From NCBI GenBank assembly GCA_964345135.1, contig CAYFQI010000001.1, forward strand, positions 3,851-67,850: 64,000 nt of DNA, given 5' to 3'. Position numbers and translations under genes: made by a program. Below, in pieces: positions 6,853-54,693 of the stretch. Below the pieces are notes generated by a model. That model was not told the origin of the DNA. It did no database searches and saw nothing but the letters and a program-made list of their open reading frames with translations. This stretch comes from an uncultured Bacteroidales bacterium. GTDB taxonomy: Bacteria > Bacteroidota > Bacteroidia > Bacteroidales > JBBRXJ01. The first letter of the stretch is position 1. The number at the start of each line of letters is the position of its first letter.

Positions 6853-7305
6853 CTAATACACGCTATAGTCGAGCACATTGCTTTGCTCTCCTGTATGGTA
6901 TATGACATACAGCTCTATTGTTGAATCTTCCAGGTCATTTTTGTTTTTTTCAATAAGCAGCCGTATGTTTTTCCCGGATGATTGTATTTGTTTGTTTTCA
7001 TACATTGTATAATAGTTACTCCCGGATTTTTGTATTGTGATGGAACGGGTATCTGCACTTCCATTTTTTTTAATGACAACATGTACCGCGGATACATTTT
7101 CCACTCCTTCTTTTACAAAAAAACTTATTTCTACATCTACATTCACGGATATCTGGCCTTCCGGGTTGAATTTGCGCATGGTTGAAACACTTAAGTTCGT
7201 GATGGAACGGCTATCTTCCATTTCATCTATATATAAGCTGTCCTGCGAATACATGGAACTGATTCCTGTGAATACCAAAAAGTGAATTATTAAAAGTGTT
7301 TTCAT
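6853..7305 (-). CDS. small secreted protein (150 aa), weak paralog of 38002-38415
   Basis: ORF track entry with N-terminal signal peptide MKTLLIIHFLVFTGISSMYSQ. It lies co-directionally between two giant genes. It shows weak colinear similarity to the 137-aa ORF (NYYTMYENKQIQ...ELYVIYHTGEQSNVLDY vs NCYITVNGQQHQ...TLYIYQAGEKTHTLYY). Confidence 0.6.
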   Translation of the reverse strand: MKTLLIIHFLVFTGISSMYSQDSLYIDEMEDSRSITNLSVSTMRKFNPEGQISVNVDVEISFFVKEGVENVSAVHVVIKKNGSADTRSITIQKSGSNYYTMYENKQIQSSGKNIRLLIEKNKNDLEDSTIELYVIYHTGEQSNVLDYSVY

Positions 7306-7378: not shown

Positions 7379-10300
7379 CTACGGATCAATGGTTGTACTA
7401 CTGTTCACGGGTTCCGAGTATTTTGTCATTTTCCCGTCTGCTTCATCTCGCCAAACCTTCCCGGTTTCATCATCGCATATTCCCTGCTCATTATTGATCC
7501 ACTGGTCATTGCCATCATGGAGATTGGGATAATACGTGCCACAGTCAAAATCATCAAAGTACGTGGTAACATGGACAACAGGATCAAACGCTATGGAATA
7601 CAGGGAAACCGTCACAATTTCATTGGAATTGCTGACTGCCTCAGAGGCAACCTTTGTAAAATCAGCAGCCGGGTCTGTTTTCATCCATCCTGTAAACAGG
7701 GTGTCCCCGGCCGATTCATCTATTTCTTTGTCTATCCTCAGCCAGCAGGGAAACTGTGAGATATTGACAGGGTCAGATTTCTCACTCTCCTGTATTATGC
7801 CGTCTTCGTCTTGATCATACATGAATATGGCCTGGTTGTTTTTGATGGCCAGTTTTACAAACCCGCCTTTTTTCAGGTCGCCGGGGTTGTTGGCCACCAT
7901 GATGCCACCTTCCGACGCATTGTTGAAACGTGCTGTAGAGTCAATCCGTACCGAAGCGGAGAATCCTCCTTTGAAGTCGTCTTTGAACACGGCCACGAAT
8001 TGGCTGTCTGCTTCGCCCCTGGCATGGATATTCAGGCGTTCATTGAATACATACACCCCACTCATGTTCCACCTGTCGCGGTATATTTCGGTCCACTGCG
8101 GATCCAGTCCTGTTGCATCAAAGTCATCGCCGCAATCACATAATGACATATCATTTTGAAGGGCAAATACAAATTCCCAGTTTTTATATTTTTTATAATC
8201 TTCCAAGCTGCATTCAGGCAGTATGACAGGGATTGAATTCTGAATACCTTCCGGATCATTGATTGTTATAAAATCTGTACCGTTTGCATTTATAACCTTG
8301 CATTTAGTAGTGCTATCCAACATGGGATACTCCGATTCATTGTCTGTAAAAATCTGTGTACACCCGGTTTTGCATTCGTCAATCATTTGACCCGTGATCT
8401 GGCGGATGTCTTCTTCCAGTACCACGTTTGCATTGGTAGGGCAGCCCCCGACCTGGTAGCAATTATCAATAAAAGCTTGTTTTACTTTGTTATACACGTC
8501 CTGCCTACTGGATTCGCACAGGTAATCACAGCTGTCCTTCATTTCACCGAACAACTTATCTGCCATTGCATATAATTCATCTATGATCTCCTGGGTGTCA
8601 TCATTATAATCATCTTCTGATAACTTCGGTGCTTCGTAGTCAAGCAGTGCCTGGTAGAACATGTCACGTTCGCTGCTGCTCCAGTAAATGTAATACCTGC
8701 TTCCGCATTTGCATTGGCAAACAGGTGTTTCATGATCCTTATAATTATCATAACAAAAGGCCACTTCAAGCCCGCGGGTGTCGGTATTATAATCTTCATC
8801 ATATTGAAAATATTTATAGGCATACACCGGATTTTTAATGGCAGGCAGGCAAAGGTCATTCTCATTCAAGTCAGTATGGTATTTCTGGTCATTGTATTTG
8901 ATGTGTCGCACGAATTCATCCGAACCGGGGGTATACCCATCTTCATCCTCATTAAACACGTGTTGCAGGCCTCCGGCATCGTCTTTGGTGACAATGGCAG
9001 CAAATTTCTGTCCTGCACAGTTAAAAAATTGTTCTATAATGTTGAATTCAAATTCTACAGGGTCTCCTGTCCCGTCTTCCTGAACATTTTCGGCTTCACG
9101 TACTTTTTTGGAAATTTTTTCATCACTGGTAAACAAGCGGGCAAACCACCCCATGTTTTCTTTCATGCCATCATTAACATGATCGTCTTTTTTGCCTTCT
9201 TCTTCTTCTTCTGCCCCTTCATGCACAGAAGTTGATTTTTTTAACTCATCACGTATCATATCCTGTACAGAAGCCACCACGCTTTTCCAGCATTTCCACA
9301 GGTCTTTGCAGGCATATTGGTATTGGTTATCGCCCGGCCCTACTGGTTCAAGGCTGTTCGGCTTTACCAAATCACCTTCAGCATTCAAAATCGTGGCCCC
9401 GGCATAATATTTGTCCGTGAGCATGTAATACATCATGGAATCGAGGGTTTCGCGGTCATACCCCGGGATAATATTCACGCCTGCTCCTCCTGTCGAGTTA
9501 AGATTGATGAGTTCATCATCAATTAAATTCTGTAGTTCTACCTGCATATATTCCCAAAAACTCTGGAGCGAGTCGGGATGTTCCCGGAGAAAATCGCCCT
9601 TGTAACAACGAATTGGTGGATGATATTTGACAGATATTTCAATATCGCCACAACATCCTCCGCCGATGGTTAAGGTATGAGGGAGATTGCCCAAATCCGG
9701 GTTTTGAATATTAAATTCGGGGGTTAATTCCACTTTATGTTGGGGCATTTCATCAGCATTACCAGGGGCATAAAATTGAAACGTGTCGGCCAGGCGCACC
9801 CTTCCAAAATAATAGCCTGTGTCGGGATACAATACCTTTTGATAATTACCTGTTGCATGGCCTTGTTCCAGCCTGTCGCCAAAGCGTTGTACGTCTTCAT
9901 AAAACTTTAGCATGGCTTCTTCTGTCCTGACTTTTCGAAGCCACGAGTGAAACACGTTCACGAGCGGCTCAATAGACTGGGCATTTTCATTTAATTTAGC
10001 CTCGAGTGGCATGGGATCCTGGTCCGGGATGGTTGAAATGATGATTTTTCGAAACATGTACGTGCCTGCTGGAAGTCCATCTGTTGGAATTTCGGGGGTA
10101 AATGTTACATTATTTACAGCATCAGTAGTTACATTCGAATTACAAACAGATTGCAAATTACTTTTATATTCTTGTCCCGTGTTTACATTGGTAATGGTGA
10201 ATTTCACCTGGTAACCGCAGTCGGCATGAAAGCACTGGCAACCTTTTTCTATGACAGGGCAGGATATCGTGTAATTAATATTTATTGGCGTAGGTTCTGA

Positions 10301-12091
10301 AAAATTGAGTTTCCGTGAACTGATAAAGCCCCGGTTGAATTTCCTGTTTTCCGTTATAGAGGTGGTTAGCTCAAATTCACTATCCGAAGCATACAGGCCT
10401 TCATTGTCGAGGTTGTCGTCATTGCTGATGGTCATGCATGAGGCTATGGTATTGCCTTCTTTGGATGCATATGTGACTGATGCCGTGTTATTTTGGTCAA
10501 TGGTGATGGTTTTTAACACCGACTCAGCCGAAGGCGCTTCGTCGCCGAAAACTCTCACCAGCTCTTCCTCTGAGGGGTTTCCGTATAGAGTTCGGACGGT
10601 TCTTCCCTTTCCATCAGCCTGTTCACCTACAGCAAACGTGCGGCCCGGTGATGTTTGTTCCACCACCCTGCCCGTGCCATCATTGGTATAAAAGCTTACG
10701 GCATACGGATACCCCTGTGAACTTGGTAGGCTGAGGTTGTCGTTTTTATTGGAATAATAACTGAACGCATCAGAGCTGTCAACCTGGGCCGGGGTGCGGT
10801 AGCGGCTATCTGAATCAAAATGTTTTGCTGTATATGTTTGATTTCCGCTGGTAAGAAAATCCTTTTCATACCCTTCAAGTCCACCAGTTACAGGCACGGG
10901 CATGGTGACAAGCCGTGGGCGCCCGCTGTAATCCTGGACTGACTGTGTGATAAGCCTTGAATCATCGGAAAAAAGATGTGTTTGTGTTTGTTGTACCTGG
11001 TTCAGTCCATTGGCATAGGTGATTTGTTCGCTCATCCTGTTGTTTTCGGTGAATACCCTGCTGTATATCCAGTTGGTGTTTTCATCCGGGTCTGTTAAAT
11101 AAAAATAAGCAGATAAAGACGCTACCTTGCTTAAATCAACATAAACCGGGCTTCCCTGGCCGGGTGCATCGTCGTTCCATGTTCCATAATTCAACGCATT
11201 GGCAAATCCACCCTTGTAATAATTGCCTACCGGCCTCACGCGCCATACATAAAATCCCGTGCCCTCGGCAACAGAAATCGTGATTTTATGCGAGGAGCCA
11301 TCGTCCGGGATGCTTTCATAGTCTATATGAAGGGCTTTTGACCAATCTACGGTCGCGCTAACTTCATGATTACCCAATGCATTTTCATCCTGGTTGTACA
11401 GGCGGAGCAGTTCAAACTGAAACATGGTGAAGTCGTTACACGTCCAGGTGAATTCCTGTACTCTTCCACTGGTAATGCCTTGTCCGTTTGCTGTAAGTTC
11501 TGGTATGGTGCATGATGCTTTATCACTGCCATCATCCGGGGTAACATCCACAAAGTAGTCTACTTCATAATGCAATGACAGGCGAATGCTGTCTTGGGGG
11601 ACACTCCCAAGTGTTGTAATTAAATCATCAACTGTTACCACCACGTCTTTTATCTCTTCTGGATCAGACACGGTGTTATATACATACAATGCTTTGGGCT
11701 CATTGTTTTTTATGGCCAGGGTTATAGGGTCACTTCCTGAAGTTGCCAAAACATCTCCTGCATTATTTTTTTCATTCACGATAAAATCCAATTGCACGCT
11801 AAAATCCAGGTCAGGTGCGGCAGAGGACTGTCTGCCAAAAATATACTGTTCTCCCATATCCAGGGTGATGAATACCCTGGAGCGGCTTTTTTTATATTTA
11901 ACACCCGGGGGAGGTGGCAGGGTAATATGACAATCCTGATTTTTTTCAATATCATGATATATTACCTCCCCTTTGTACTGCCCAAATAATGATGATGAGG
12001 CAAGGCTCCATGCCATAAGCATTATGCACAGTTTTATTAAAAGCATTCTTGTTTTCATTGAATATAAACTTATATGTGTCATTATAATCAT
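7379..12091 (-). CDS. giant secreted protein (1570 aa) with an RHS-associated (DUF6443-like) central region and a ConA/LamG-like C-terminal domain
   Basis: ORF track entry. The signal peptide probably starts at the internal MKTRMLLIKLCIMLMAWSLASSSLFGQ (alternative start 12058). The region ~10540-11100 reads NWIYSRVF...ITYANGLNQVQQTQT...QDYSGRPRLVTMPVP...GYPYAVSFYTNDGTGRVVEQTSPGRTF...GRTVRTLYGNPSEEELV. I recognise this pattern from the N-terminal domain that precedes the YD repeats in Bacteroidetes RHS proteins. No YD repeats follow here. The protein also has Cys-rich stretches and a jelly-roll-like C-terminus. Confidence 0.8.
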   Translation of the reverse strand: MIIMTHISLYSMKTRMLLIKLCIMLMAWSLASSSLFGQYKGEVIYHDIEKNQDCHITLPPPPGVKYKKSRSRVFITLDMGEQYIFGRQSSAAPDLDFSVQLDFIVNEKNNAGDVLATSGSDPITLAIKNNEPKALYVYNTVSDPEEIKDVVVTVDDLITTLGSVPQDSIRLSLHYEVDYFVDVTPDDGSDKASCTIPELTANGQGITSGRVQEFTWTCNDFTMFQFELLRLYNQDENALGNHEVSATVDWSKALHIDYESIPDDGSSHKITISVAEGTGFYVWRVRPVGNYYKGGFANALNYGTWNDDAPGQGSPVYVDLSKVASLSAYFYLTDPDENTNWIYSRVFTENNRMSEQITYANGLNQVQQTQTHLFSDDSRLITQSVQDYSGRPRLVTMPVPVTGGLEGYEKDFLTSGNQTYTAKHFDSDSRYRTPAQVDSSDAFSYYSNKNDNLSLPSSQGYPYAVSFYTNDGTGRVVEQTSPGRTFAVGEQADGKGRTVRTLYGNPSEEELVRVFGDEAPSAESVLKTITIDQNNTASVTYASKEGNTIASCMTISNDDNLDNEGLYASDSEFELTTSITENRKFNRGFISSRKLNFSEPTPININYTISCPVIEKGCQCFHADCGYQVKFTITNVNTGQEYKSNLQSVCNSNVTTDAVNNVTFTPEIPTDGLPAGTYMFRKIIISTIPDQDPMPLEAKLNENAQSIEPLVNVFHSWLRKVRTEEAMLKFYEDVQRFGDRLEQGHATGNYQKVLYPDTGYYFGRVRLADTFQFYAPGNADEMPQHKVELTPEFNIQNPDLGNLPHTLTIGGGCCGDIEISVKYHPPIRCYKGDFLREHPDSLQSFWEYMQVELQNLIDDELINLNSTGGAGVNIIPGYDRETLDSMMYYMLTDKYYAGATILNAEGDLVKPNSLEPVGPGDNQYQYACKDLWKCWKSVVASVQDMIRDELKKSTSVHEGAEEEEEGKKDDHVNDGMKENMGWFARLFTSDEKISKKVREAENVQEDGTGDPVEFEFNIIEQFFNCAGQKFAAIVTKDDAGGLQHVFNEDEDGYTPGSDEFVRHIKYNDQKYHTDLNENDLCLPAIKNPVYAYKYFQYDEDYNTDTRGLEVAFCYDNYKDHETPVCQCKCGSRYYIYWSSSERDMFYQALLDYEAPKLSEDDYNDDTQEIIDELYAMADKLFGEMKDSCDYLCESSRQDVYNKVKQAFIDNCYQVGGCPTNANVVLEEDIRQITGQMIDECKTGCTQIFTDNESEYPMLDSTTKCKVINANGTDFITINDPEGIQNSIPVILPECSLEDYKKYKNWEFVFALQNDMSLCDCGDDFDATGLDPQWTEIYRDRWNMSGVYVFNERLNIHARGEADSQFVAVFKDDFKGGFSASVRIDSTARFNNASEGGIMVANNPGDLKKGGFVKLAIKNNQAIFMYDQDEDGIIQESEKSDPVNISQFPCWLRIDKEIDESAGDTLFTGWMKTDPAADFTKVASEAVSNSNEIVTVSLYSIAFDPVVHVTTYFDDFDCGTYYPNLHDGNDQWINNEQGICDDETGKVWRDEADGKMTKYSEPVNSSTTIDP

Positions 12092-12103: not shown

Positions 12104-12823
12104 TTAATTGTTTACCAACAACCTGTACCCGGCATATTTCCCGGTTAAACGCCCTTCTTTATCAAGAAAAAAACTCCTGGCCGGTTTATGCATGTTTATT
12201 TTATAATTCAAGTCCATGTTATTCAGCTCCACGATCATCCTTTTTGCTTTAAAATGTTTATCATACAAGGTGATGGTTTTATTTACCAATTCCTTCGCGG
12301 GGTCATAATGATACGTGATGCTGTTGATGTCAAATTTATCCTGTAATTCCGGTTTTGTTTCGAGCATGATGACTGTCTCGCGTTTGTCTTCGGATTGCCT
12401 GCATTGTTTAAGCTGCATCACGTTAAACACGGAATCTTTGAGCATCACGATTTCATTATACCGTTTGTTCATATCTCTTTTATACGCTGAATTGGTTCGG
12501 ATCACTATCTTTTTTTCATGCTGAACAATGAATGCATCTGTTGTATCCTGGTATATTTCAATGTCTTTGGTGATATAATGCATTTGGTGGGCAGCCATAT
12601 AAAAACGGACATTGTATGTTTTTGTTTCTATGCCTCCACTAACGCGCATGTCTGATGTCAGGGTATAATTAAAATAATAAACCTTGTTGCCTTCGGGCAT
12701 GCCTATGCTGTTCATTTTTTTATTGTATTGCTTAAGCTGACGGATGCACTGCTGATCTGATTGAGCATAGCCCATACAATGTATCACCAGGAAGATGCCT
12801 GTAAATATGATTACTCTTTTCAT
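12104..12823 (-). CDS. secreted protein of unknown function (239 aa)
   Basis: ORF track entry with signal peptide MKRVIIFTGIFLVIHCMGYAQ. Its ATG overlaps the stop of the upstream 1985-aa gene (ATGA at 12820-12823). Confidence 0.7.
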   Translation of the reverse strand: MKRVIIFTGIFLVIHCMGYAQSDQQCIRQLKQYNKKMNSIGMPEGNKVYYFNYTLTSDMRVSGGIETKTYNVRFYMAAHQMHYITKDIEIYQDTTDAFIVQHEKKIVIRTNSAYKRDMNKRYNEIVMLKDSVFNVMQLKQCRQSEDKRETVIMLETKPELQDKFDINSITYHYDPAKELVNKTITLYDKHFKAKRMIVELNNMDLNYKINMHKPARSFFLDKEGRLTGKYAGYRLLVNN

Positions 12824-15800
12824 TCGCTGGCCCTTTCTATTCGTTTGGTATTGTATTGTGTTTCCTTCAGGGTTTTCAATCCCCGTTCGGTTTCAATCAT
12901 CCTGCGTACCAGTTTTCCTTCTGCATTGTACTGGTAGAATACGCCAAAGTGCTGGTCATCAAACTGTGTAATCAGCCTGTAGTTATTTACATCATATACA
13001 TAACAGGTCGCGGAGGCATCATAAGGCTGGAACCTGAGGTCATCAATGAACACCTTTTCTCCTTGTGCAATGTTATATTCCAATCCAATGGTAATGTTAT
13101 CATTGAGCATGGCCATGTTTTCCCAATCTTTAATATACGCCCGGTATAATGTCCATTTACCTGTAGATGCAATTTTTTCAAACGGTGCTGTCACATTGTT
13201 GTTAATGACCACCTGGAATCCGGCCTCGCTATTTTCCATGGAATAACCCCGTGCATCTTCATTGCACAACCATACTTTGACCATGGCTCCTTCGTCCATG
13301 AGATGCTGATTCATTTTCAGGCCATGTGAAGAGGCCACCAGGTTTGTTCCCATGTATTGATTCATGTCCAGGCATTTGTTCCCGGAGTGGGCATTTGCTT
13401 TTGTTACAGCATTCGTGTTGTTTTCAAAATCGTCAAAATAAATGGATGAATAGGCTGCATTTTTGGCCGTAATCACCGGGAAATATCCCTGGTAACCATA
13501 GCGCGCGGCACTATAAATGTTTAATACATCATATTCTTCCAAGGGATTCCCCTGGGGTGAATATTTGGTGATGGTAGCTGTTTTAAGCCATTCAGGATCG
13601 GGTGTTGCCTGCCAGTCAAACATCGTGAAATCTTCAATAATACCACCATTATAAATCCTGTTTTCAGGGTTATTGGCAGAGGTAACATTGCCGGCATTAA
13701 AAATATAGGTTGCCTGGGGCCTCCATACTTCATTTAATGTAGCTTGTTGATCGAGATCAACCCCGTATTCATGAAGAATTGATACATTGTCTCCTGTAAA
13801 CCAGTTATTCCTATATGTCGTTGCACTGGCAGAGATCACTGCATTGGTGGAAATGGCATCAGCATTCCACTCGCTATTGGCGCTATGAATGATGCTGTCG
13901 AACCAATGCCCCTTTCCATACGTGGTGAATGACATGGCTTGTTCGCTTAACCGGTTGGCATACGACATGTTTTCGGATTTTGGCCCCAGCTCCGGGTATA
14001 TCATATCTGCCGGGATGGTAACATTGTTAATACTTCCATCATGTTTGTCATCTCCTCTATTGCTTTTGACAAGGGTTACATCGTGGTAGCTGTCAAATGT
14101 TTTGGTAACAATGGGTTTTCCGTTTGCCGGGTTGAATGCAACATGTTCCGTGCTTGTTATGCCGCCATCAACGAAGTTGGTTATTTTTTTGGTGACCGCG
14201 GGGTAGCTGACTACCTTGGAGGTGATGTGTGAACTGATGCTCTTATCCTGGAATACAAATGATGGTGCAGCCCCAATGGTAATCGTGGGTACCACGGTAC
14301 TAAACAAAATATTGATATCGAGTTCAAGTTCAATATCCAATAGCCTGTCTGTTACGGCCCGCATTTCCATGGTCACCTTTTCTTCTTTACCGGGGTTTTC
14401 TTTGGTGATGGAGAATTGTTTACTGGTATCATCGTACCTAAGCAAGGGCATCTGTTCGTTTTCAAAGTCAAAATAATCATACAATGTATAAGAGACCAGT
14501 TTGTCTTCATTGTTTCCACGTGCATATACGCCGGAATAGTTGGATGTTTTATGTGGTTTGCCATGCATATTCCTGTTTACAAACCGGAATCCTTGTGTTA
14601 ACCAGTATTTTTCCAATAACAGGTTGAAAAACGAGGTATATATCGGCACTTTCACTTTCACATCACTAATCCCTGTCGTTTTCACAACGAGTGGATACTT
14701 TTTGACTGTATTGAATTCATATACTGTATGGCCGGTATTGCTTTTGCCTGTATGAATATTTTGCTGGATGACTCTGGAGTACCCGATGGAAGGCCCGGGT
14801 AAAACGCTTTCGCCCAATGGCCCCTGCATTTTTTTCTTGTCTTCCCCGGATATGATCCGTCCAATAAATTTTTGTGATTTTCTTTGGAGTAATTGAACCA
14901 ATGCATTTTCTTCATGCCCTGCTCCCGGTTCATTCGTGGCCACTCCACTGCTTAACCCGTTTTCAAGTTCATAAATATATTCACTGCCATAGAGTTTTGC
15001 TTTGCCGTCATGCATGCCATCATCATACATCAGCAATCGTTTCACCCTGATGCCGCCGCCTTTTTTGGATTTCAACACGGGAATACGAAGGTATGAAAAC
15101 GGGTAGTTGATGTCTTTGCACACGTCATTTTTCTTTGGTGCACCATCAAACAGATGTTTGGATACTTCCAGGATACTTTCTGCAGCTAAAGAACCTGCAT
15201 GAAGATTTCCAATTCCATAATCTTCCTGTTCTATCATATCTTCATAATCTGCCTGAATATCATTTTCCAGTTTATTTTTTTTAGAGTAATCGCAGTCACA
15301 GTTATTGCCCTTTAACATGCCATCTATATTATTTGATACATATTCATAACATAATCGTTTGGGGGTGTTTTCGCGATTGACACCGGAATAGAAATTACTG
15401 TACACCTCTTCCATGGCGCGTCCGTCTCCAAGCCTCAGGTAAATTGAATTTTCGGCTTCATCATACCCTACCTCATTCACCGAGGTAAACCCGGAGATAT
15501 ATTCGGATTCGCAATGGTTAAAGCCTGCAGTCCGGTTGCCCATCAATGAATATAAAAACTTAAAATAAATATGGTGAGGAGGCAGTTCTCCTTTGTCTGC
15601 AAGAAAATATTCTTCCAGGACATCGACATAATCTTTTATATCATCTGTTTCAGTGATCCCGATGCTGTTGAGGTCAAGATAAAATTTATTGTCGTCTGGT
15701 TTATAACTGTCAGATGAGATGTCCTGCATGAGGGGCGCCATAACCAGAGCTTTTTTATCCTGTACATAGGCATAGTCTTTTTGCTCGTATTGAATATGAA

Positions 15801-18777
15801 TTTCACCTCCTGATGGAAGTGTTATTTTCTTGAGGTTCCAGGCAGCTGCATCAAACACGGGTTGTTCACCCTGGTATACCCAGGGGATATGATTTTCATG
15901 ACGGGTATCTCCATTGGCCTGGTAATTCCCCCACATATCCAATGCATACGGGGTATAAGGAGGGTTCTGATTAACATCACCAACAGGCGGGCTTGTTTCA
16001 TCTGTACCATTAAACGATGTTAAAAATTCATTGATCCCGGGGTATTTACTCGCGATATTGTTGGAGTAATTAGAAGGATATCTATAGTCAAACTGGTAAG
16101 GAGCTATTTTCCCGCGTACAATGCCTTCATTTTCAAACCACACTTTTTTTAAGGTGAGTTTCCCGGCACCATTTTCGGCATTGGGCAGGCCGGCACATAA
16201 TGAATTTGTATATTCAAAATGGACGGTTTGTAAAGGTTTGGAGAAGTCTTTTTTGGAATAGACTACTATTTTTTCCAGTTTTTCCAATGATTGTCCGGCA
16301 TTTTTTAAATTATTATTTTTAGCAGCCGGATCGATTATATTGCCACTCCGATCTGTTGTATATTGAACAGCGCCATACGAATCTTTCCTTGGCTCGCCTG
16401 AACCGACTAAGTTGTTTTTTTCTTCTCCTGTGAATTCACTGTAATGTGAGGGGATTGATTTGTTTGTCACGAAAAAAGCCACATGCGATTTTGTTTCAAT
16501 GGTTTTCAGGTAATACACTTGTTTCTCTCCTGTCATCACTGTTCCCATGTCATCGGTTTTATCTGCCAGGTTTCCTTCATTATAATTCATGCCATAATAA
16601 GGGGTCCTGTAGCGATACCATTCTCCCGGATTTGTTTCTGTTGACTCCCATTGCCTGTAATGGAACTGGGTCCACCCGCCAATGTCATGTTCATCCGGCC
16701 CATCATCCCCAACATCTATGTAATCATGGGTTACGATTTGAGTTAAAAGGTAATTCATGGCATATGGGTTGTCGCGTTTTTCGCCCGTTACTATTGTATT
16801 GTCTAATATATCAGTGTCTGCATATAATCTCTGACGTAAGATATAATTGTTATCAATGGTGGGTGACAAGCTGTTGTCCATTCCGATAGAAACATTGGTT
16901 TCATTCCTGGTAAAAACAGGCAGGCCATACACATAATTCATCCCGTTTTCACTGGTTATGGAAAATTCGCCGATTAAGTCATCGTATTTGTCAGAAAGAC
17001 TGTTCCACGTGGTATTCTTTTTGTTAAATCGAATACCTAAATCTATTTTAATATCATTTATTAAATTGAAATCAATATACGAAGAACGTTGGGTTGAATA
17101 CCCGGTAAGTTCGTTTAATCCAACTGTTGCCTCATTTGGAGACAACCATAGATCTGTATTAAATCCTGCTTGTGCAGCTTCATTACCATTGGAATATTCA
17201 ACATTACCGCCCATATCATTGGTAAAGCGGAAAAACCCTTTTGATTTTAAAGAATTGTCCTGCTCAAACTGGGATACGTTTGATAAAGGACTAACACTAA
17301 TGGGGTTATACCAATCTCTTAATTTCGTGGTTTGATTTCCGAATCCGAAATCAAACCCGACCTGGAAGGTTCCCCCAACACCCAGCTCAAGGCCACCCTT
17401 GGTAATGACCTGCTTGCTGAATTCAAAATTCGGGTAATAATGCCCCTGTTTTTTATAATGGTATGAAAATCCACCCATCATTTGTTCTCCTGTTACAACA
17501 AAATTGTCTGGTGCAGAAAAAGGGATGCTTAAATATTTGTCATTGCGTTGGTACCCTGTCTGCCGTTCTACCATGTAATCGGAAATTACATCATCGTGAT
17601 AATCGCTGTTATCTATTGGTTTAAAATCCTGATGCTCTTCATTATCCGGATTGTAGAGAAATCCATATGCTTCCAGGTTCATTTTTGCTTTATTTACCTG
17701 GATGTTGTAATTTCCAGTAAACCCTGCTTCTATTCCAATCGGCGCGAAAACATTGGCTTGCACTGAAATGCTACGGTCCAATACTTTGCCCCTGTATGTT
17801 CCGACAGTAAATGGCATGCCTCTGCATATATATGTTTCGACCGAGTAATAACTCGGGGCATTCATGGACATATAGCCTTTAACAGCTTTTGCATCACTTA
17901 TTAAACCTCTTAATTTTTTTCTTGTTGTCTTTTTTTTCTGATCATCCATTTCATGGGCTTTCTTCTGTTCATTTTGGTCGTTATCGTTTTTTTCAGCGAC
18001 TAATTTTCCAAGAATAGACAATACATCCACACTTGGTTTTAGGCTGGATATTCCACCTGATCCGCCCTGCATGTTAAGACCTCCATACCCTTTCACGTCA
18101 ATGCCAAAGCCATACGTTTTAAAAAACCCTTTGTAATTATTGAAGCGTACGGATTTGCTGAGTTTCAACGCCCCCAATGATTTCCCTCTATCTGAAAGTC
18201 TGTCAAAATTTTTTTCTCCCATATAGGATTTATCATCGCTTTTATATTTATTGTCATTACTATTTTTTTGAGCTTTTTTATATATTTCAGACTGTGTCAT
18301 TTTGTTTTTGCCCGCGCCTTTATCTTTTGAAAATAACTCGAGTTTCCCATCTACTTTGGCAGAGACAGACCAGTTGGGTTTTGTTTTGTTGTATTTTGTC
18401 ACATCAGAAGCATTGTAATCATCAGGGTATCCTGCTTTGCTGCGATTGATGGCCCCGGGGTTTAATGTCCACCCGTACCCAACCCAGGAAGCTTCTTCTT
18501 CCGGAGACACACCACTATGATAGGATAATGAAAGGGCGTATCCTCCTCCATCGGGGCCGGGTATGTTGACTACCGGGAGGTTGTAGGTAAAGTCGCCGGA
18601 AAAAATATCGACCATATCGGTCGTGGCAACAGGCTCAAATGAGCTGAATTCAGGGGAGTTAGGCCCGGATGTCAATGCAAGGGCTACGGTTGGGGAAACC
18701 ACCGTGTTTAAAATACTCAATGCCGTAATGATGGCAAAAATTTTAATTATTTGTTTCTTTTTAATCATAATTTCCAA
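12820..18777 (-). CDS. giant secreted protein (1985 aa) with an SpvB/TcB-type N-terminal domain and a YD-like C-terminal end
   Basis: ORF track entry. The first ATG at 18768 forms an ATGA overlap with the upstream stop. After the signal peptide the sequence reads SGDFTYNLPVVNIPGPDGGGYALSLSYHSGVSPEEEASWVGYGWTLNPGAINRSKAGYPDDYN. This has the same layout as the SpvB/TcaC N-domain core (tG..s.siPl..PG..G..P.LsLsY.S....G.GW.L....I.R....G.P.Y.d). Later motifs are YAMNYLLTQIVTHDYIDVGDDGPDEHDIGGWTQFHY and GKLTLKKVWFENEG (~16080-16780). The C-terminus is FDDQHFGVFYQYNAEGKLVRRMIETERG. Confidence 0.8.
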   Translation of the reverse strand: MEIMIKKKQIIKIFAIITALSILNTVVSPTVALALTSGPNSPEFSSFEPVATTDMVDIFSGDFTYNLPVVNIPGPDGGGYALSLSYHSGVSPEEEASWVGYGWTLNPGAINRSKAGYPDDYNASDVTKYNKTKPNWSVSAKVDGKLELFSKDKGAGKNKMTQSEIYKKAQKNSNDNKYKSDDKSYMGEKNFDRLSDRGKSLGALKLSKSVRFNNYKGFFKTYGFGIDVKGYGGLNMQGGSGGISSLKPSVDVLSILGKLVAEKNDNDQNEQKKAHEMDDQKKKTTRKKLRGLISDAKAVKGYMSMNAPSYYSVETYICRGMPFTVGTYRGKVLDRSISVQANVFAPIGIEAGFTGNYNIQVNKAKMNLEAYGFLYNPDNEEHQDFKPIDNSDYHDDVISDYMVERQTGYQRNDKYLSIPFSAPDNFVVTGEQMMGGFSYHYKKQGHYYPNFEFSKQVITKGGLELGVGGTFQVGFDFGFGNQTTKLRDWYNPISVSPLSNVSQFEQDNSLKSKGFFRFTNDMGGNVEYSNGNEAAQAGFNTDLWLSPNEATVGLNELTGYSTQRSSYIDFNLINDIKIDLGIRFNKKNTTWNSLSDKYDDLIGEFSITSENGMNYVYGLPVFTRNETNVSIGMDNSLSPTIDNNYILRQRLYADTDILDNTIVTGEKRDNPYAMNYLLTQIVTHDYIDVGDDGPDEHDIGGWTQFHYRQWESTETNPGEWYRYRTPYYGMNYNEGNLADKTDDMGTVMTGEKQVYYLKTIETKSHVAFFVTNKSIPSHYSEFTGEEKNNLVGSGEPRKDSYGAVQYTTDRSGNIIDPAAKNNNLKNAGQSLEKLEKIVVYSKKDFSKPLQTVHFEYTNSLCAGLPNAENGAGKLTLKKVWFENEGIVRGKIAPYQFDYRYPSNYSNNIASKYPGINEFLTSFNGTDETSPPVGDVNQNPPYTPYALDMWGNYQANGDTRHENHIPWVYQGEQPVFDAAAWNLKKITLPSGGEIHIQYEQKDYAYVQDKKALVMAPLMQDISSDSYKPDDNKFYLDLNSIGITETDDIKDYVDVLEEYFLADKGELPPHHIYFKFLYSLMGNRTAGFNHCESEYISGFTSVNEVGYDEAENSIYLRLGDGRAMEEVYSNFYSGVNRENTPKRLCYEYVSNNIDGMLKGNNCDCDYSKKNKLENDIQADYEDMIEQEDYGIGNLHAGSLAAESILEVSKHLFDGAPKKNDVCKDINYPFSYLRIPVLKSKKGGGIRVKRLLMYDDGMHDGKAKLYGSEYIYELENGLSSGVATNEPGAGHEENALVQLLQRKSQKFIGRIISGEDKKKMQGPLGESVLPGPSIGYSRVIQQNIHTGKSNTGHTVYEFNTVKKYPLVVKTTGISDVKVKVPIYTSFFNLLLEKYWLTQGFRFVNRNMHGKPHKTSNYSGVYARGNNEDKLVSYTLYDYFDFENEQMPLLRYDDTSKQFSITKENPGKEEKVTMEMRAVTDRLLDIELELDINILFSTVVPTITIGAAPSFVFQDKSISSHITSKVVSYPAVTKKITNFVDGGITSTEHVAFNPANGKPIVTKTFDSYHDVTLVKSNRGDDKHDGSINNVTIPADMIYPELGPKSENMSYANRLSEQAMSFTTYGKGHWFDSIIHSANSEWNADAISTNAVISASATTYRNNWFTGDNVSILHEYGVDLDQQATLNEVWRPQATYIFNAGNVTSANNPENRIYNGGIIEDFTMFDWQATPDPEWLKTATITKYSPQGNPLEEYDVLNIYSAARYGYQGYFPVITAKNAAYSSIYFDDFENNTNAVTKANAHSGNKCLDMNQYMGTNLVASSHGLKMNQHLMDEGAMVKVWLCNEDARGYSMENSEAGFQVVINNNVTAPFEKIASTGKWTLYRAYIKDWENMAMLNDNITIGLEYNIAQGEKVFIDDLRFQPYDASATCYVYDVNNYRLITQFDDQHFGVFYQYNAEGKLVRRMIETERGLKTLKETQYNTKRIERASE

Positions 18778-19400
18778 AACTTTATAGCCGGTATGTTATC
18801 AATTTCTTTTTTATTAAATACAAAATGATTGATGCCTGTTGAAAATATCTCATCATCAAATTTTAGTGTTAGCTTATCTGCCTCCATCAATTCGTTCTTT
18901 TTGTTCTCCGGTGAAAACACGACAATGATATTTCTTGATGTACTCATGCCATAGGTGTTTTCCAGGTTCGTGAGCGTGGGAGGATATTCTTTTTTTCCTG
19001 TCATCAAAGAAAGGTATTCGCCCATGTAGAAGTTAAGCTGCCTGGCTCTTAGCTGAAACTCTTCTACTTCATGAATCTTATTGAACATGATGTCTTCATC
19101 TTTTTTCGCTGTGCCAATTTCAAGTATAAAGGTACGGGTGTACCGATAATATGCAAACAGGCTGTCTTTTTCCTGTTGAGAATATCCCGGATTCCTGCTG
19201 AGCTCCCTGTAAACCAATACTTCAGGCGGAAGGTATTTGGCCCGGATTTTAATATCACCGGTAATTCGTTCTTTCACCAGGCCGTTTTCAGGATCATTGA
19301 TCCATTCATACATCTCCTGTTCCGAATGAAAATCTTTCGTGCATGACAAGCACATCATCATGCTGAACAAAAAAATGATTATGTTTTGTATGTTATTCAC
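18765..19400 (-). CDS. lipoprotein of unknown function (211 aa)
   Basis: ORF track entry. The N-terminus IIIFLFSMMMCLSC has a lipobox-like LSC. It overlaps the OmpH gene stop by 8 nt and the 1985-aa gene start. Confidence 0.7.
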   Translation of the reverse strand: MNNIQNIIIFLFSMMMCLSCTKDFHSEQEMYEWINDPENGLVKERITGDIKIRAKYLPPEVLVYRELSRNPGYSQQEKDSLFAYYRYTRTFILEIGTAKKDEDIMFNKIHEVEEFQLRARQLNFYMGEYLSLMTGKKEYPPTLTNLENTYGMSTSRNIIVVFSPENKKNELMEADKLTLKFDDEIFSTGINHFVFNKKEIDNIPAIKFWKL

Positions 19401-19926
19401 CTAAATAATATTTATTCAATCCTTCTAATACTTCATTTGTTAAATCCAATGGTGGTGTGCCATACACAACCGTGCCTTTGTCCATCGTGCCAAAGATCAT
19501 GTCGTAGCCCTGTTCGTCTCCGTATTGTTTCAGGTACGTATTGACCTGTTCCAATACTTCCATTGTCATTTCCACATCCAGGCCTTCTGCTTGTTTTTTT
19601 ATTTTCTGGTTTAAAACATGCATGTTTTGCCTGAGGCGTCTTATTTTTTCTTTTTTATCCCGTTTTTCTGTTTTGGAATACGCAGCAGAATCAAGAATAT
19701 AGTTATTAATTTCGAGCCTAAGTTCATTGCTCAATGTATCCATGGCAGATTTCCATTCTGCCCGTTTTTGCTCATATTCTTTGCTTGCATCCTTCATGCC
19801 TGCATAATTTTCAAGCACTACTTCGGTTTTGATGTACCCGATTTTGGGGACAGAAAGTTTGACCCATGCAGTAAAACCAATGCATCCCAAAATCAACACG
19901 ATATAAATTATTTCCCTGTATTTCAT
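19393..19926 (-). CDS. OmpH/Skp-family periplasmic chaperone (177 aa)
   Basis: It has an N-terminal membrane/signal segment. Then comes KIGYIKTEVVLENYAGMKDASKEYEQKRAEW..., followed by a long charged coiled coil, ending ...YLKQYGDEQGYDMIFGT. Size and layout are typical of OmpH/Skp. There is an ATGA overlap with the 1915-aa gene stop (19923-19926). Confidence 0.75.
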   Translation of the reverse strand: MKYREIIYIVLILGCIGFTAWVKLSVPKIGYIKTEVVLENYAGMKDASKEYEQKRAEWKSAMDTLSNELRLEINNYILDSAAYSKTEKRDKKEKIRRLRQNMHVLNQKIKKQAEGLDVEMTMEVLEQVNTYLKQYGDEQGYDMIFGTMDKGTVVYGTPPLDLTNEVLEGLNKYYLGE

Positions 19927-22900
19927 TCTTTTACAATAAATTGTCCTTTATAAATACTTGTTCCTGTTTCTGTTACAAATTGTATCTCAAATGTATAAAT
20001 ACCCGTTTCATCTATTTCAGATGTATTCCATTGCGGTATATTATTCATGATTTCACACACCTCTGTACTGTTTTTAAATACTTTAAGATAATTCACAGAA
20101 TCATCCGGGAATACTGTTTCCTGATCCGGGGTTGTTGTTTCATCGTTATCATCATAGGTTATAGAAAAACGTGGGTTACTTAGAGACAATACAAAAGGAT
20201 CGCCATTGCTAAATGAGACTTTAATATTGTTCTGGCAGGTAATCTCATTTTCAGGCTCTGCTTTGAATTTTAATATATCCCTATATACATCATATAAGTC
20301 TTTGTCAATAAGATGCTCTTCTTCTGTTCCATCCTCGCTTTCAACAATAAAATATACCTTGTAATACCCGGGTGGATCACTTAATGGAATAATATCTCCG
20401 TTTCCATCTGTGCAAAATTTGATTTTCCCGTATTTCGTGGTTGCATCTTCATACACTTCAAGGTAATGGCATGCTTCCAGCATTTCGGGGGCCATGGGTT
20501 CGCCAAGTTTTGTGGAATTGTTCCCGGAGGTGTGGTATGGTTCACCCGGAACAGCTGTAGAGCCTGTCAGTGCATAGGTTACCCCTCCGGGGCCGGTAGG
20601 GCTCACCAGGCTGAGCGTGTTGACTATAAAGGCTCCTTTAATGAATGCAAATGCCTGTTGGTTGAAATCTGCCCAGGGAGTTATGCTAATGATATCGGGA
20701 ATGGTGGAGTCGCCTTCCAAAGCATACACGGGCCTGGTTTTTTTCCATATAGGTGCGATGTCTGAGCCATAGTCAAAGACTTTGATCGAGTCTTCTGGTT
20801 CATTATCCCAATGGCCTACACTCTGCCAGGTATTGTCCTGTTGTCTGTTGAAATAAAAATCGAGTTGAACAGAATCTTTTGTTATTTCGGATGCTGTTCC
20901 GTCATCCCTCCTGATCATGTGGAAATATTCCGGATTCACTGATTTGACGGTGGGTTCCCTGACTGATCTGTTAAATCCAAAATAATTCGGGTCTTTAGAA
21001 ATCATGCTCACGTAATAGGTATGTGGATCCAATGGAGCGCTGGCAGCTTTGTTTTCAAGTTGTGTAACCGTCACCGGCCTGTAACGATACAATTCTCCTA
21101 CAGGAAATTCATAAGGTGTATCGGGAGTCAGGTTCAGGTCTCTTGCAAGGAATCCACCGGTATCGCTTGTACTGACAAATCCTTCTATTCGTTTGATGGA
21201 TGTGTTGTCATCATTCAACACATGCAGGATATTGGTATTGGTTTCTACCCTGTTGACATTGAGGTCCAATATGCCGTCTACTTTTACATTTTTAAACATT
21301 TCTTTGGTGTCGGTTCCGGCAGTGATCAACTCATGAAATGTTGTTTCTTCATCGCCCCTGAAGCGCTGATAATTTCCAATCATGATTACTTTTCCTTCTG
21401 AAAGTGCGAATGCCTCATTGTCAACATTATTTGTCCAGTCCCTGGTCAGCCTGATTTCTCCTTTATTAAAAAAGGCTCCCTTCTTCTCTGTTTCCCGCCC
21501 GTATTCATTTAAAATATTTCCCTGCACGGTTAAATAGGTGTTTTCTCCAATATTGATTTCTGTTCCAAAATTATTAAATGTTAACCCAATAGGATCGCCT
21601 GCACCCGGGCATTTTGAGGCAATAATAAATGCTTCATAATCCACGGCTTTGATTTCACTGGTAAACATGCCGCCGGTTTCCCTGCTTCCATGGTATATCT
21701 GTTGGCCAAGAGATTCCCATTTCAGTCCCTGCACATCCCAGCTGGCAACTTCCATTTCAGAAAGGTCTACCGGGATATCGCAACTATGCCTGTTCCACGA
21801 CAAGCCGATATTAACCAATATACCATCTGCCACATTTTTCCTTAATGTCCAGTATTCACATTCGCTCACATGCTCAACGGGGGCTTGTGGCGTACCATAC
21901 GATTGCTCATCGGCAATAAACTCTGCTGTATATTCAATGGATTCATTGATAGTTGATGCTTTGGAAATACTAATGGGTTTATAAAACCTGTCTTTACCTA
22001 CAGGAAATACAAAGTCGTGATTCCCGATCTTAGTGACAGGCCCGTTCACATAACTGCTGTCAGATGCCCCGGAAACCTCAGTATCCAACTTAATGGTAAG
22101 TATGCTGTTGTCATCATTATACACGATACCATTTTCAAACATGATATAGTCTTCATTATTGGTTCCGATTGAAAGCGGAACAGTCAGGTATACATTGGAA
22201 TGGCTGAATGTATGTACTTTTGATATTTCAAGTTTCCTGATAATATTGGCTCCATCTGTATTGGTTCCCCCGATATGTTGATCCGGTTCGCCAGATAACC
22301 TGACAATCCCACCATTGATTCCAAAGATGATGTCTGAATTGATTTCTATATTGCCATTGTATTCATCAGTATGATAAGCAGAGGGGTATAGGTTGCCTGA
22401 TCCTGTATTTTCAAATGATGCAAAGTCATTGTATATATCCGGCTGTCCTGTATTGGCAGCAGCAAGCGACCATTGGGCATTGCCGGTATTGATGAATGAT
22501 ACGGGGCCGTTGTAGGTATTGCCCCCGGCACACAATACATCATTATCCCCGGTTTGTTGAAGTACTGTTACACCATTGAATACAGAGCCATTTAAAACGA
22601 TTTCGGATGCATTGGATACCAACAACCCGCTGTTGAATTCTGTTCCGGCAAAAAATACAGAGCTATTTCCCGTGGCATCATCGGGCTGTATGACTTTCAT
22701 CGCGTTGGCGGTATCCCGCCCTGACGATTCAACAGTGCCACCCGTGAATGTAGCATCCTTGGTTACGATAAGTGAGTAAGTGCTGAGGTCTAATTCTCCG
22801 GAAAGCATGCAAATATTGGCAATGGTAATATCTTCCGGGAGTACGGGAACAGGTTTTGTAGTTTCATCAAAAGCAATGAGCACATTATCATCTAGGCTTG

Positions 22901-47118: not shown

Positions 47119-48273
47119 TTAATAAATAGCCGTTCCCATCTGGAACATTGGAAGGTACATGGCAACTAAGATGACTGCTACCAGCACCCCGACAAAAATA
47201 ATCAATAATGGTTCAAGCACATTTCCCAGCATACTGGTCTGGTGTTCAAGTTCTTTTGTGTATTGTTTGTGCAGTCTTTCAAACATAACATGCAACTGGT
47301 TTACTTCTTCTCCAACCTTGATTAATGAGGTGGTACGTGTATCAAAGATTGAAAATTTTTGCATGCTTTGATGAAGTGGCTTTCCATGCATAATATCATG
47401 TTCTATTGTGTCCATGGCTTTTTCAAATGGGTAAAACCGGATCATTTTCCGGCACAATTGAATGGTTCGAAGCATGGGAATGCTCGAACTGATAAGTAAG
47501 CTAGCGGATTGGAAAAACCTTGACAAATACGACATCCTGATCATCCGGCCTATTAATGGGAGCTTTAGTATAAGTTTCGTGATAAAATCCCTGTAATAAT
47601 CTTTGTTTCGGATTGAATAAATTACAATGCTGATAACAACTAAAATGCTGAAAAAAATTCCAATGTTGTTACTGAATGCACTCGATGCTTTGATGATAAA
47701 CTTCGTTAACCCGGGAAGTTCGGCATTGGTACGCATGAAAATGTCTTTAAACATGGGCACCATGTAATTCATCATAAAAAAAACAGCAGCAAAAGCTGTG
47801 ATCAAAACTAAAATAGGATATGAAAAAGCATTGGTAAGTTGCCTGCGTTGTGCTATTTTTTTTTCATAATATATTGTAAGGTCATTCAACACATGGCTTA
47901 CACGGCCTGTTTCTTCTCCAATGCGCAGGGTATAATAATCATACGTTGTGAATTTTCTGGTCTCTTCAAGCGATTCACTCAGGCTTTGCCCGTCAATTAC
48001 CCGTTGATATAAGGTTTTAAATAATTCTTTATCTTGTTTTTTTGTTTGCTCATCTACAATAATTTCCAACGATGTTTTGATGTCTATGCCCGAACTCAAT
48101 AAAACACTCAACTCAGAAAAGAATCGTTCCTTATTTTTATCTTTTATGCTACTGCCAAACAACTGAATGTCTGCTGTCAGAGCTTGTTCAATTCTACGGA
48201 TCAGGGAATTTTCCCCTGCTTTTTTATTTTGTTCTTTTTTAAGGTTTTGAACCTTTTGTAATTCAATTGGCAT
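47119..48273 (-). CDS. gspF: type II secretion / type IV pilus platform protein, GspF/PilC family (384 aa)
   Basis: It has two T2SS-F-type repeats (LSVLLSSGIDIKTSLEII... and SASLLISSSIPMLRTIQL...). Three TM segments are present, and the C-terminus is LVAVILVAMYLPMFQMG. Confidence 0.85.
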   Translation of the reverse strand: MPIELQKVQNLKKEQNKKAGENSLIRRIEQALTADIQLFGSSIKDKNKERFFSELSVLLSSGIDIKTSLEIIVDEQTKKQDKELFKTLYQRVIDGQSLSESLEETRKFTTYDYYTLRIGEETGRVSHVLNDLTIYYEKKIAQRRQLTNAFSYPILVLITAFAAVFFMMNYMVPMFKDIFMRTNAELPGLTKFIIKASSAFSNNIGIFFSILVVISIVIYSIRNKDYYRDFITKLILKLPLIGRMIRMSYLSRFFQSASLLISSSIPMLRTIQLCRKMIRFYPFEKAMDTIEHDIMHGKPLHQSMQKFSIFDTRTTSLIKVGEEVNQLHVMFERLHKQYTKELEHQTSMLGNVLEPLLIIFVGVLVAVILVAMYLPMFQMGTAIY

Positions 48274-48416
48274 GATAATGTGTTTTAAAAAAACTTGACT
48301 TTATGGACGATTCTGGTTAAATATGCGAAATATAATAAAAAAGATAAAGTTTTTAGCGTTAATCCTTTCGGTGTTGTAATGCCATGTGCAGCTTGTGTGT
48401 ATGTTTAGCTTCATCT

Positions 48417-48971: not shown

Positions 48972-49032
48972 TGCTTTATGTTTTTGTTCCTGCCATGTTA
49001 ATTCTTATGGTTGGTTGCTAAACAGGCCCTTA

Positions 49033-50669: not shown

Positions 50670-50697
50670 TTTTTCATTTTTAATAATCTTATATATT

Positions 50698-51348: not shown

Positions 51349-51358
51349 ATGATATGGT

Positions 51359-51874: not shown

Positions 51875-51901
51875 TACAAAACTTCATTCTTTTTTAAAAA
51901 A

Positions 51902-53411: not shown

Positions 53412-53440
53412 TATGTTGTAATTTATAATTTTAAAAATAT

Positions 53441-54676: not shown

Positions 54677-54693
54677 AAACTTATATATGCCGG

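Follow-up and report, generated by a model that had tools for sequence, protein, structure and literature searches.

The window studied here, a stretch of 64,000 nucleotides of contig CAYFQI010000001.1 from an uncultured Bacteroidales bacterium, encodes on its minus strand a protein of 1982 aa (hereafter the target; coding sequence 12820..18768). Judging from its sequence and models, what is new in this protein would be the combination of a huge unannotated family, an RHS/TcB-like fold, routing to the periplasm and lack of a propeller. TcB closes the RHS cocoon with TcC, and we give somewhat better than an even chance to the reading in which the target is the fixed 'B-type' shell subunit of a periplasm-routed Bacteroidota RHS-toxin system.

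The fold of the target was predicted with AlphaFold in two overlapping halves, residues 1-1150 and 851-1982, each with 39 homologues aligned. The model of residues 1-1150 (m512efdf54799) had a predicted local distance difference test score (pLDDT) of 70.6 and a predicted template modelling score (pTM) of 0.69, with disordered Lys-rich loops and a confident structure from residue 560 onwards. The model of residues 851-1982 (m746b16cfce2d) had a pLDDT of 80.0 and a pTM of 0.70. The following layout was deduced, all coordinates being on the minus strand:

Residues 1-31, 18676..18768, minus strand: predicted Sec (SPI) signal peptide, read from the sequence, with cleavage after V-A-L-A.
Residues 32-135, 18364..18675, minus strand: conserved N-terminal block, of which residues 32-120 are the most conserved in the family.
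Residues 140-560, 17089..18351, minus strand: glycine-rich long beta-hairpins (197-247, 325-368 and 449-483) with variable Lys-rich loops between them, from DSSP and pLDDT.
Residues 561-1230, 15079..17088, minus strand: mixed beta/alpha region, pLDDT mostly 80-92.
Residues 851-1982, 12823..16218, minus strand: predicted RHS/YD-type shell region, closest by Foldseek to TcB and SGS1.
Residues ~1780-1915, 13024..13431, minus strand: beta-sandwich insert (AHSG...KLWLKS...TGEW), from DSSP.
Residues 1916-1975, 12844..13023, minus strand: terminal YD hairpins (CYVYD...FYQYNxEGKLVRKxIETERG), from hhalign.

The model of residues 851-1982 was compared with the PDB using Foldseek. This yielded 45 hits at E<=1e-3, and those of ranks 1 to 34 were all RHS/YD shells. 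The matches were distributed as follows:

SGS1 of mosquito: E 4.9e-9, probability 1.0, the top match.
TcdB2-TccC3: E 7.8e-9, probability 1.0.
TcdB1: E 9.6e-9, probability 1.0.
YenB: E 1-4e-8, probability 1.0.
Rhs effectors of type VI secretion systems (T6SS): E about 1e-7 to 1e-4.
Teneurins and a bacterial teneurin-like protein: E about 1e-6 to 1e-4.
TcC chains: E 7e-6 to 6e-4.
Ib/CDTb pores, the first hits other than RHS shells: from E 2.5e-4.

The matches to TcB and SGS1 were 3-4 orders of magnitude better in E-value than those to TcC chains. From these models, we predict for the last ~1,100 residues a beta-spiral shell of the RHS/YD type, with TcB as its closest counterpart. A structural relationship to TcB had been put forward in a preliminary description of the gene, made from the sequence alone; it was recovered in the Foldseek run against the PDB over residues 851-1982 (E 5e-9 to 4e-8 for TcB and SGS1, probability 1.0). 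That description had also called the C-terminus YD-like, and hhalign indeed pairs residues 1946-1955 with TcB 1349-1358. In the target, 4 loose YD-like motifs were counted, against 0.85 expected by shuffling (shuffle maximum 4). The model of the N-terminal half gave no Foldseek match at E<=1e-3, its three best weak matches being TcdB2-TccC3, teneurin-4 and a T6SS Rhs protein.

Residues 140-560, whose glycine-rich region follows the consensus GxExxxGxxxGxGxDxGxGxQ, occupy the place of the remainder of the SpvB domain and of the FG-GAP propeller in TcB. The beta-propeller that the preliminary description had suggested looking for was absent: FG-GAP was matched in 0/22 diverse family members and the glycine-rich hairpins stand in its place. 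The motifs YLLTQI...GGWTKFxY, GKLTLKKVW and LPSGGEIxVQYEQKDY characterise residues 561-1230, which also include a helical, Cys-bearing and poorly conserved insert at residues ~1000-1220. The beta-sandwich at ~1780-1915 may be a low-confidence lectin-like or carbohydrate-binding-module-like domain; its Foldseek matches were weak (BACOVA_00087, E 4.9e-3; perlecan laminin-IV-like domain, E 0.019). A hairpin with ~28 residues per strand was observed at residues ~1461-1522 (14203-14388, minus strand), in which polar and hydrophobic residues alternate (DIELELDINILF / SFVFQDKSISSHITSKVV), and it was this hairpin that matched the Ib/CDTb toxin pores at E 2.5e-4. An outer-membrane barrel had been named beforehand as the outcome that would speak against a TcB relative. 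We rejected this barrel reading, since no barrel was found by HMM or by fold: no Pfam or NCBIfam barrel family and no significant Foldseek match were obtained, a FimD usher appearing at E 0.75.

A second resemblance to TcB lies at the N-terminus. The first 200 residues alone were scanned with Pfam, using cut-offs of 22 bits for SpvB (PF03534) and 24.1 bits for DUF6531 (PF20148). Both families were matched below their cut-offs, SpvB at E 0.0069 and 16.1 bits (residues 57-128, aligned to positions 4-71 of the 287 in the profile) and DUF6531 at E 5e-4 and 20.7 bits (residues 51-103). The SpvB/TcB-like and DUF6531-like strand motif spans residues 57-128. Among the 22 diverse members, SpvB was matched in 10 (best E 3e-4) and DUF6531 in 13, all sub-threshold. 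As a TcB reference we used SepB from plasmid pADAP together with 120 listed TcB homologues, all of which carry PF03534, PF12256 and PF12255, and nearly all PF13517. When a 130-sequence alignment of the target family was compared with the TcB family alignment using hhalign, residues 74-112 were aligned with TcB 48-84 at E 5e-4, pairing GGGYAxSLSYHSG..WVGxGW in the family with GRGYAPxLxLxYHS..FGxGW in TcB. Further weak matches were collinear with it, linking residues 1742-1767 to TcB 1170-1195 and residues 1946-1955 to TcB 1349-1358 (E 0.07). As controls, reversed or locally shuffled TcB profiles were used; their scores were 18 to 26 (E 0.2-0.8) and that of the real profile 49.8. Comparison with SepB alone or with a 22-sequence TcB alignment gave short weak matches only, and the larger alignments raised the motif to E 5e-4.

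Because hhalign reached E 5e-4 when its controls stayed at E>=0.2, the N-terminal motif is, as judged from the profile alignments, a real but short (~70 residues) remnant of the SpvB/TcB N-terminus. The proposed SpvB/TcaC N-domain layout is upheld insofar as the match is reproducible; it does not extend beyond ~70 residues, it scores 16.1 bits against the 22 required, and the strong TcB signal is C-terminal instead. Mean column identity in the family is 0.63-0.86 over residues 21-120 and 0.55 over residues 121-140. The segment LTSGPxSPEFSSFEPVATTDMV at residues 32-60 (18589-18675, minus strand), directly after the signal peptide, is among the best-conserved parts of the family, and AlphaFold left residues 21-60 unstructured (pLDDT 31-40). 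This peptide may serve in docking to, or sorting by, some partner.

The signal peptide itself shows what looks like a Sec pattern: its start is rich in Lys, a hydrophobic core comes next, and V-A-L-A then precedes LTSGP. The A.ALTSGP site is kept across the family, and the maximum hydropathy over the first 45 residues has a median of 2.38 in the family versus 0.94 in true TcB. The gene start was revised. In the list of open reading frames, the target frame runs for 1985 codons from a TTG (12820..18777, minus strand), hence the 1985-aa protein of the preliminary description. The open frame is present, but the TTG at 18777 lies 3 codons 5' of an ATG at 18768 (MIKKKQ), and this ATG was taken as the start because the homologues all begin at MIKKKQ; the corrected product is the 1982-aa protein, with its stop codon at 12820-12822. 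The cluster representative of the family, P0001, also has 1982 aa. All the motifs quoted earlier were found in the target translation: SGDFTYNLPVVNIPGPDGGGYALSLSYHSG at residues 57-86, ASWVGYGWTLNPGAINRSKAGYPDDYN at 93-119, GGLELGVGGTFQVGFDFGFGNQ at 458-479, YLLTQIVTHDYID at 673-685, GGWTQFHY at 697-704, GKLTLKKVWFENEG at 869-882 and VFYQYNAEGKLVRRMIETERG at 1943-1963.

With more than 1,400 homologues of the target in a first search, we concluded that its reading frame is not a chance one. Most of the 120 best homologues listed were full length (1,843-2,143 aa), 35-83% identical, 'hypothetical' or unnamed, and devoid of a precomputed Pfam domain. For the target, too, no Pfam or NCBIfam family was matched by the whole protein, and no description of the family was found in the literature searched. 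An exhaustive HMMER pass was then made with residues 851-1982 as the query against 1.84 billion cluster representatives (50% identity). It matched 5,245 representatives at E<=1e-3, 3,410 at E<=1e-10 and 1,996 at E<=1e-30. In a scan of one genome per species, relatives were confirmed in at least 566 species genomes.

The carriers named were Cytophagales, Flavobacteriales, Chitinophagales, Sphingobacteriales and Bacteroidales metagenome-assembled genomes (MAGs); beyond these orders, Kapaibacteria/Ignavibacteria and one MAG labelled Chlorobiota were found. Among the carriers that can be cultured are a Chitinophaga sp., Pedobacter chinensis, Ohtaekwangia, Ekhidna lutea and Aquimarina megaterium. 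The Bacteroidota context assumed at the outset was borne out, the named homologues belonging mainly to Bacteroidota orders and a neighbouring gene in the window carrying a type IX secretion system (T9SS) sorting domain. Five cassette loci (L004, L035, L045, L064 and L065) occur in MAGs labelled Saccharibacteria, Scalinduaceae, Bradyrhizobiaceae and Hyphomicrobiales, odd labels which likely reflect binning contamination or mislabelling and not the true distribution. The Tc-like genes of Amoebophilus and the bacterial teneurin-like proteins do not belong here, being different proteins. The RHS core motif was found in 0/237 family members, and 203 of 208 members share a common end point 10-29 residues past ETERG. 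The family is thus one of predicted shell proteins, with both ends invariant over thousands of homologues and without a toxin or an RHS core of their own.

The genes around the target were examined in a synteny set of 83 loci, the downstream counts being made on the 56 loci with enough sequence and the upstream counts, as well as those of the type II secretion system (T2SS), on 72. In the window, the neighbouring genes are:

19923..25670, minus strand: upstream Ig-like surface protein, 1915 aa, Pfam Ig_7 E 1e-9, translationally coupled to the OmpH gene.
19393..19926, minus strand: Skp/OmpH-like chaperone, Pfam OmpH E 9.5e-26.
18765..19400, minus strand: conserved lipoprotein of ~210 aa (here 211 aa), overlapping both of its neighbours.
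12104..12823, minus strand: LolA3-like periplasmic protein, 239 aa, whose start overlaps the target stop codon.
7379..12091, minus strand: DUF6443-family protein, 1570 aa, with a signal peptide, DUF6443 E 5.9e-5.
6853..7305, minus strand: small secreted protein, 150 aa, with a 134-aa equivalent at the same position in L087.
1..6720, minus strand: giant LRR-Ig-PKD-SdrD_B-RHS gene, truncated by the edge of the window (2240 aa or more), with Pfam RHS_repeat matched from residue ~1906 (E 5.8e-8).

The order Skp-like, lipoprotein, target, LolA3-like, DUF6443 is a strictly conserved cassette. The frames of the 1915-aa, OmpH, lipoprotein, target and LolA-like genes overlap by 4-8 nt, and the 1570-aa DUF6443 gene begins 12 nt after the LolA-like one. 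Upstream of the target, the OmpH and lipoprotein genes were found in 52/72 loci; downstream, a gene of LolA-like size was present in every inspected locus and a DUF6443 gene on the same strand in all 56. The Skp/OmpH-like orthologues have an N-terminal hydrophobic anchor or signal. The lipoprotein family has an invariant Cys and, in nearly all orthologues, a lipobox-like signal; it had no Pfam match, and its profile retrieved nothing from the PDB sequences. With the 239-aa protein, NCBIfam LolA3_fam was matched at E 3.6e-6 and 26.7 bits, for a cut-off of 83, and 4 of its 20 orthologues matched the same family (best E 5e-9). Its profile, searched against PDB sequences, found nothing, and the label 'LolA-like' therefore derives from the sub-threshold NCBIfam matches only. 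Homologues of the 1915-aa protein occupy the same position in about 11 loci. At the position of the 150-aa gene, L088 has two genes with PTL_trimer domains (21370-22581), between its DUF6443 gene and the downstream giant.

DUF6443 was matched in 17 of 22 orthologues of the 1570-aa protein (best E 7e-10). A paralogous relation of this family to the target or to TcB was considered and rejected, none being detectable, and the DUF6443 profile retrieved nothing from the PDB sequences. The DUF6443 proteins of the cassette come in two forms, a short one of 1,050-1,800 aa with almost no YD motifs and a long one of 2,100-3,100 aa with 7-11 of them. Complete long forms possess a canonical RHS core (e.g. 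RVYDPRLGKF...NKPIKYVDRDG; pattern RxYDPRxGRW...NPxxxVDPxG in the examples) followed by a variable C-terminal domain, which in one example is Tox-MPTase2 (E 9e-19). L068 and L074 are two of the loci with a long-type DUF6443-RHS toxin. A downstream open reading frame (ORF) with at least 5 YD motifs was present in 37 of the 56 loci, and in 14 an RHS core is visible before the fetched sequence ends. With a short DUF6443 protein, the next large gene can hold the RHS part, as in L071.

The DUF6443 protein of the window is of the short type, with a Cys-rich C-terminal part whose end looks, by eye, like a LamG-type domain. The gene at 1..6720 breaks off before any core. The homologues of this gene over its last 800 aa were RHS proteins with Tox-MPTase2, Tox-MPTase3 or other toxin domains at their ends. 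It probably encodes a giant adhesin-RHS toxin, with the core and the toxin part beyond the window. The preliminary description had suggested that the target may be the partner of a downstream YD protein. A YD gene does exist (1-6720) and the family is genetically tied to RHS toxins; the protein at 7379-12091 is not of the YD type, and we infer the toxin partnership of the target from synteny only. In L059, two small ORFs follow the RHS gene (24500-26700), each with an RHS-core motif at residue ~119, and resemble the orphan core-plus-toxin modules of classical rhs loci.

On the same strand as the target, the window also contains a secretion cluster:

47119..58721, minus strand: complete, divergent T2SS/type IV pilus-like cluster.

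Encoded in it are a prepilin peptidase, a GspE-like ATPase that has an MshEN domain, a secretin with N-terminal STN and FecR_C-like parts, a protein resembling PilN, pilin-like proteins and GspF. T2SS genes were found at 10 kb or less from the cassette in about 9/72 loci, these loci being phylogenetically non-independent. This is far above a chance expectation of ~0.4%, our own estimate for a single-copy cluster in a genome of ~5 Mb. GspF directly precedes the cassette (OmpH gene) in L002, L044 and L062, and in Ohtaekwangia it is located just upstream of the cassette.

How could these elements work together? In our proposal, the Skp-like and LolA-like factors would keep the huge beta-rich chains assembly-competent after Sec export. 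In the manner of TcB with TcC, the TcB-like protein would then pair with its DUF6443/RHS partner through complementation of beta edges, and the joined shell would cap or extend the cocoon around the variable C-terminal domain of the partner. The complex might remain attached to the outer membrane or be set free from it, with the nearby T2SS-like machine as the likely route, and it would be used in antagonism of, or contact with, other cells. Taken together, a TcB-like fold, RHS genes and private chaperones would point to a mode of toxin packaging or delivery that has not been described so far.

Several points weigh against a B-type shell subunit. The TM-scores to TcB are 0.1-0.2, with root mean square deviations of 25-37 A; therefore the likeness is one of hairpin-spiral pattern and not of rigid global superposition. 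Searches of all PDB sequences with phmmer and with a 48-sequence family profile gave nothing meaningful, and RHS_repeat (PF05593), TcdB_mid and FG-GAP were matched in none of the 22 members. In the clade of the window, the DUF6443 protein itself lacks YD repeats, an RHS core and a toxin domain, and the one encoded in the window has neither a YD motif nor an RHS_repeat match. Many RHS cocoons are self-sufficient, so that a second shell protein may not share the same cage. Having Skp-like, LolA-like and lipoprotein genes as neighbours would also suit a protein active in outer-membrane assembly or export. Finally, most loci have no T2SS genes within 10 kb, and on the three long contigs inspected none was seen within that distance.

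The target could alternatively serve as a scaffold of the envelope or surface, or as an adhesin module, derived from a repurposed RHS shell as in teneurins and SGS1, and organising the flanking giant Ig/PKD/LRR/SprB-like proteins. The cassette is indeed flanked by adhesin-like giants, here and in many other loci, the family members never carry a toxin or an RHS core, the DUF6443 partner is toxin-less in the clade of the window, a possible lectin-like beta-sandwich lies near the C-terminus, and the top structural match, SGS1, is a non-toxin shell. We nevertheless find this unlikely, since the target is strictly co-conserved with the DUF6443 protein and with no particular adhesin, and the adjacent gene is YD-rich in about two-thirds of the loci, complete examples showing an RHS core and then a toxin. 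RHS repeats also occur in the giant gene of the window, whose homologues have Tox-MPTase domains at their ends. A role as an outer-membrane export or assembly factor, comparable to that of TpsB proteins or ushers, for the DUF6443/RHS protein and the giants appears more improbable still. It would have amphipathic Gly-rich hairpins in the membrane, for which the glycine-rich long hairpins of residues 197-483 and the pore-like match of the ~1461-1522 hairpin could be invoked. It would also suit the Skp-like, lipoprotein and LolA3-like proteins, typical helpers of outer-membrane biogenesis that would here serve the target itself, and the flanking giants without detectable T9SS sorting domains. Against it stand the absence of a barrel in the Pfam, NCBIfam and Foldseek searches reported above, and the fact that ranks 1-34 of the C-terminal half are soluble RHS shells.

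Least probable by far is a canonical TcB docked through its propeller on a TcA injector and releasing a TcC toxin into eukaryotic cells, even with TcB among the best structural matches and an SpvB-like N-terminal motif. Of the domains of real TcB, PF03534, PF12256, PF13517 and PF12255 are all below threshold, three of them at 0/22, and the FG-GAP-like motif has a median of 1 against 6. We excluded this reading on the missing TcB domains, propeller and TcA-type neighbour, together with the signal peptide. A broader reading extends the B-type shell subunit to its surroundings. The seven genes for the Ig-like giant, the Skp-like protein, the lipoprotein, the TcB-like shell, the LolA3-like protein, DUF6443 and the RHS giant/toxin, along with the nearby T2SS-like machine, would form a previously unrecognised Bacteroidota pathway of toxin export and delivery. 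Following Sec export, a BC-type RHS cocoon would be built in the periplasm with the help of chaperones of its own, and would next cross the outer membrane or be mounted on it. This we put forward as a tentative and rather doubtful proposal.

To our knowledge, RHS/Tc cocoons occur in three settings, as ABC toxins released by lysis, as T6SS cargo and as repurposed eukaryotic shells. If the pathway existed, it would provide the first Tc/RHS-type cage neither released by lysis nor borne by the T6SS, and an exit route for many signal-peptide-bearing DUF6443-RHS toxins of Bacteroidota. If the partnership between target and toxin held, it would explain the maturation and export of signal-peptide-bearing Bacteroidota RHS toxins, make the Tc division of labour between B and C older and wider than the insecticidal complexes, and offer a candidate substrate for the little-studied T2SS-like machines of Bacteroidota. 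Thousands of records now named 'hypothetical protein' gain a usable annotation.

Other features of the window were noted in passing. Four unrelated genes lie between the T2SS-like cluster and the cassette; their products are a permease for amino acids, an SMP-30-like protein with a T9SS tail, a tail-specific protease and a surface protein of the LIC11966 family. The gene at 43044-44186 carries Por_Secre_tail, indicating that the organism has T9SS cargo. A giant surface-type gene (29275-37983, minus strand) combines LamG, F5/8C, CBM96/DNRLRE, PKD and sialidase-N domains, and the Ig_7 domain of the 1915-aa protein (19923-25670) is of the 'CHU_C-associated' kind. No T9SS C-terminal sorting domain was detected in these two giants. 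Three consecutive genes for proteins of 363, 356 and 414 aa (25709-29124, minus strand) separate the giant lectin/PKD gene (2902 aa) from that of the 1915-aa Ig-like protein; they have no Pfam or NCBIfam match and their homologues were found in only 2-4 of the 83 loci. The G+C content of the window ranges from about 0.29 to 0.48 and falls to 0.29 at 24001-26000, which includes the 5' end of the 1915-aa gene and an intergenic region, with a strongly negative GC skew. The right end of the window (61027-63981, minus strand) encodes HsdR, the R subunit of a type I restriction enzyme (SWI2_SNF2, HSDR_N, ResIII).

The target and its surroundings can be compared with several known systems. The window has the same type of divergent GspD/E/F/G and prepilin-peptidase cluster as the T2SS-like genes chu_3191-3202 of Cytophaga hutchinsonii (PMC5553014). 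A keyword search of passages of that paper found no mention of a TcB-like or RHS cassette, and the link of such a T2SS to the target cassette is one of gene proximity alone. Stand-alone RHS toxins (RhsA, Tse5 and Tse15 of the T6SS, the DUF6443-RHS proteins of Bacteroidota and the bacterial teneurin-like proteins) have the YD-shell fold in common with the target (E 1e-7 to 1e-4), and their polymorphic-toxin locus logic is also that of the target loci. They carry RHS_repeat, a core/autoprotease and a C-terminal toxin, whereas the target has none of these and its neighbour does. Bacterial teneurin-like proteins possess an NHL propeller, an FN-plug and a toxin of their own (PMC13018210), features which set them apart from the target. 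SGS1 resembles the target in having an RHS-type shell and accessory, possibly sugar-binding, beta domains. It is a secreted eukaryotic protein of 2932 residues with another domain set and an unrelated genomic context, and the 8% identity in the alignment amounts to no sequence similarity.

The closest comparison is with the TcB proteins, namely TcdB2 and TcdB1 of Photorhabdus, YenB of Yersinia entomophaga and SepB of Serratia entomophila. The caution of the preliminary description that the protein differs from canonical TcB was right, the target having no propeller, mid domains or TcA, being longer and being exported. In place of the full PF03534 domain of TcB, it retains only ~70 of 287 profile positions, below threshold. 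The FG-GAP propeller (PF13517) was found in 0/22 family members, and the motif D[ILMVF]xGxG occurs with a median of 1 in the family versus 6 in TcB. The midN and midC domains (PF12256, PF12255), both present in all 120 listed TcB homologues, were likewise matched in 0/22. The target is ~550 residues longer than TcB, with its glycine-rich hairpins and possible lectin-like insert. Glycine-rich hairpins standing in place of the propeller would therefore leave no docking onto a TcA injector, and no TcA-type domain was seen in the scanned window genes or in the annotated neighbours of homologues. The Sec signal peptide and the private Skp-like, lipoprotein and LolA-like genes belong to the target and not to TcB; TcB is made in the cytoplasm and has no signal peptide. 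Known Tc toxins are freed by lysis (PMC10847048). The two have in common a large RHS/YD hairpin-spiral shell, predicted in the target, and a first N-terminal strand motif GxGYxxSLSYHS....GxGW. Like TcB, the target ends in YD hairpins and carries no toxin of its own, and in part of the loci it too adjoins an RHS protein with a core and a toxin.

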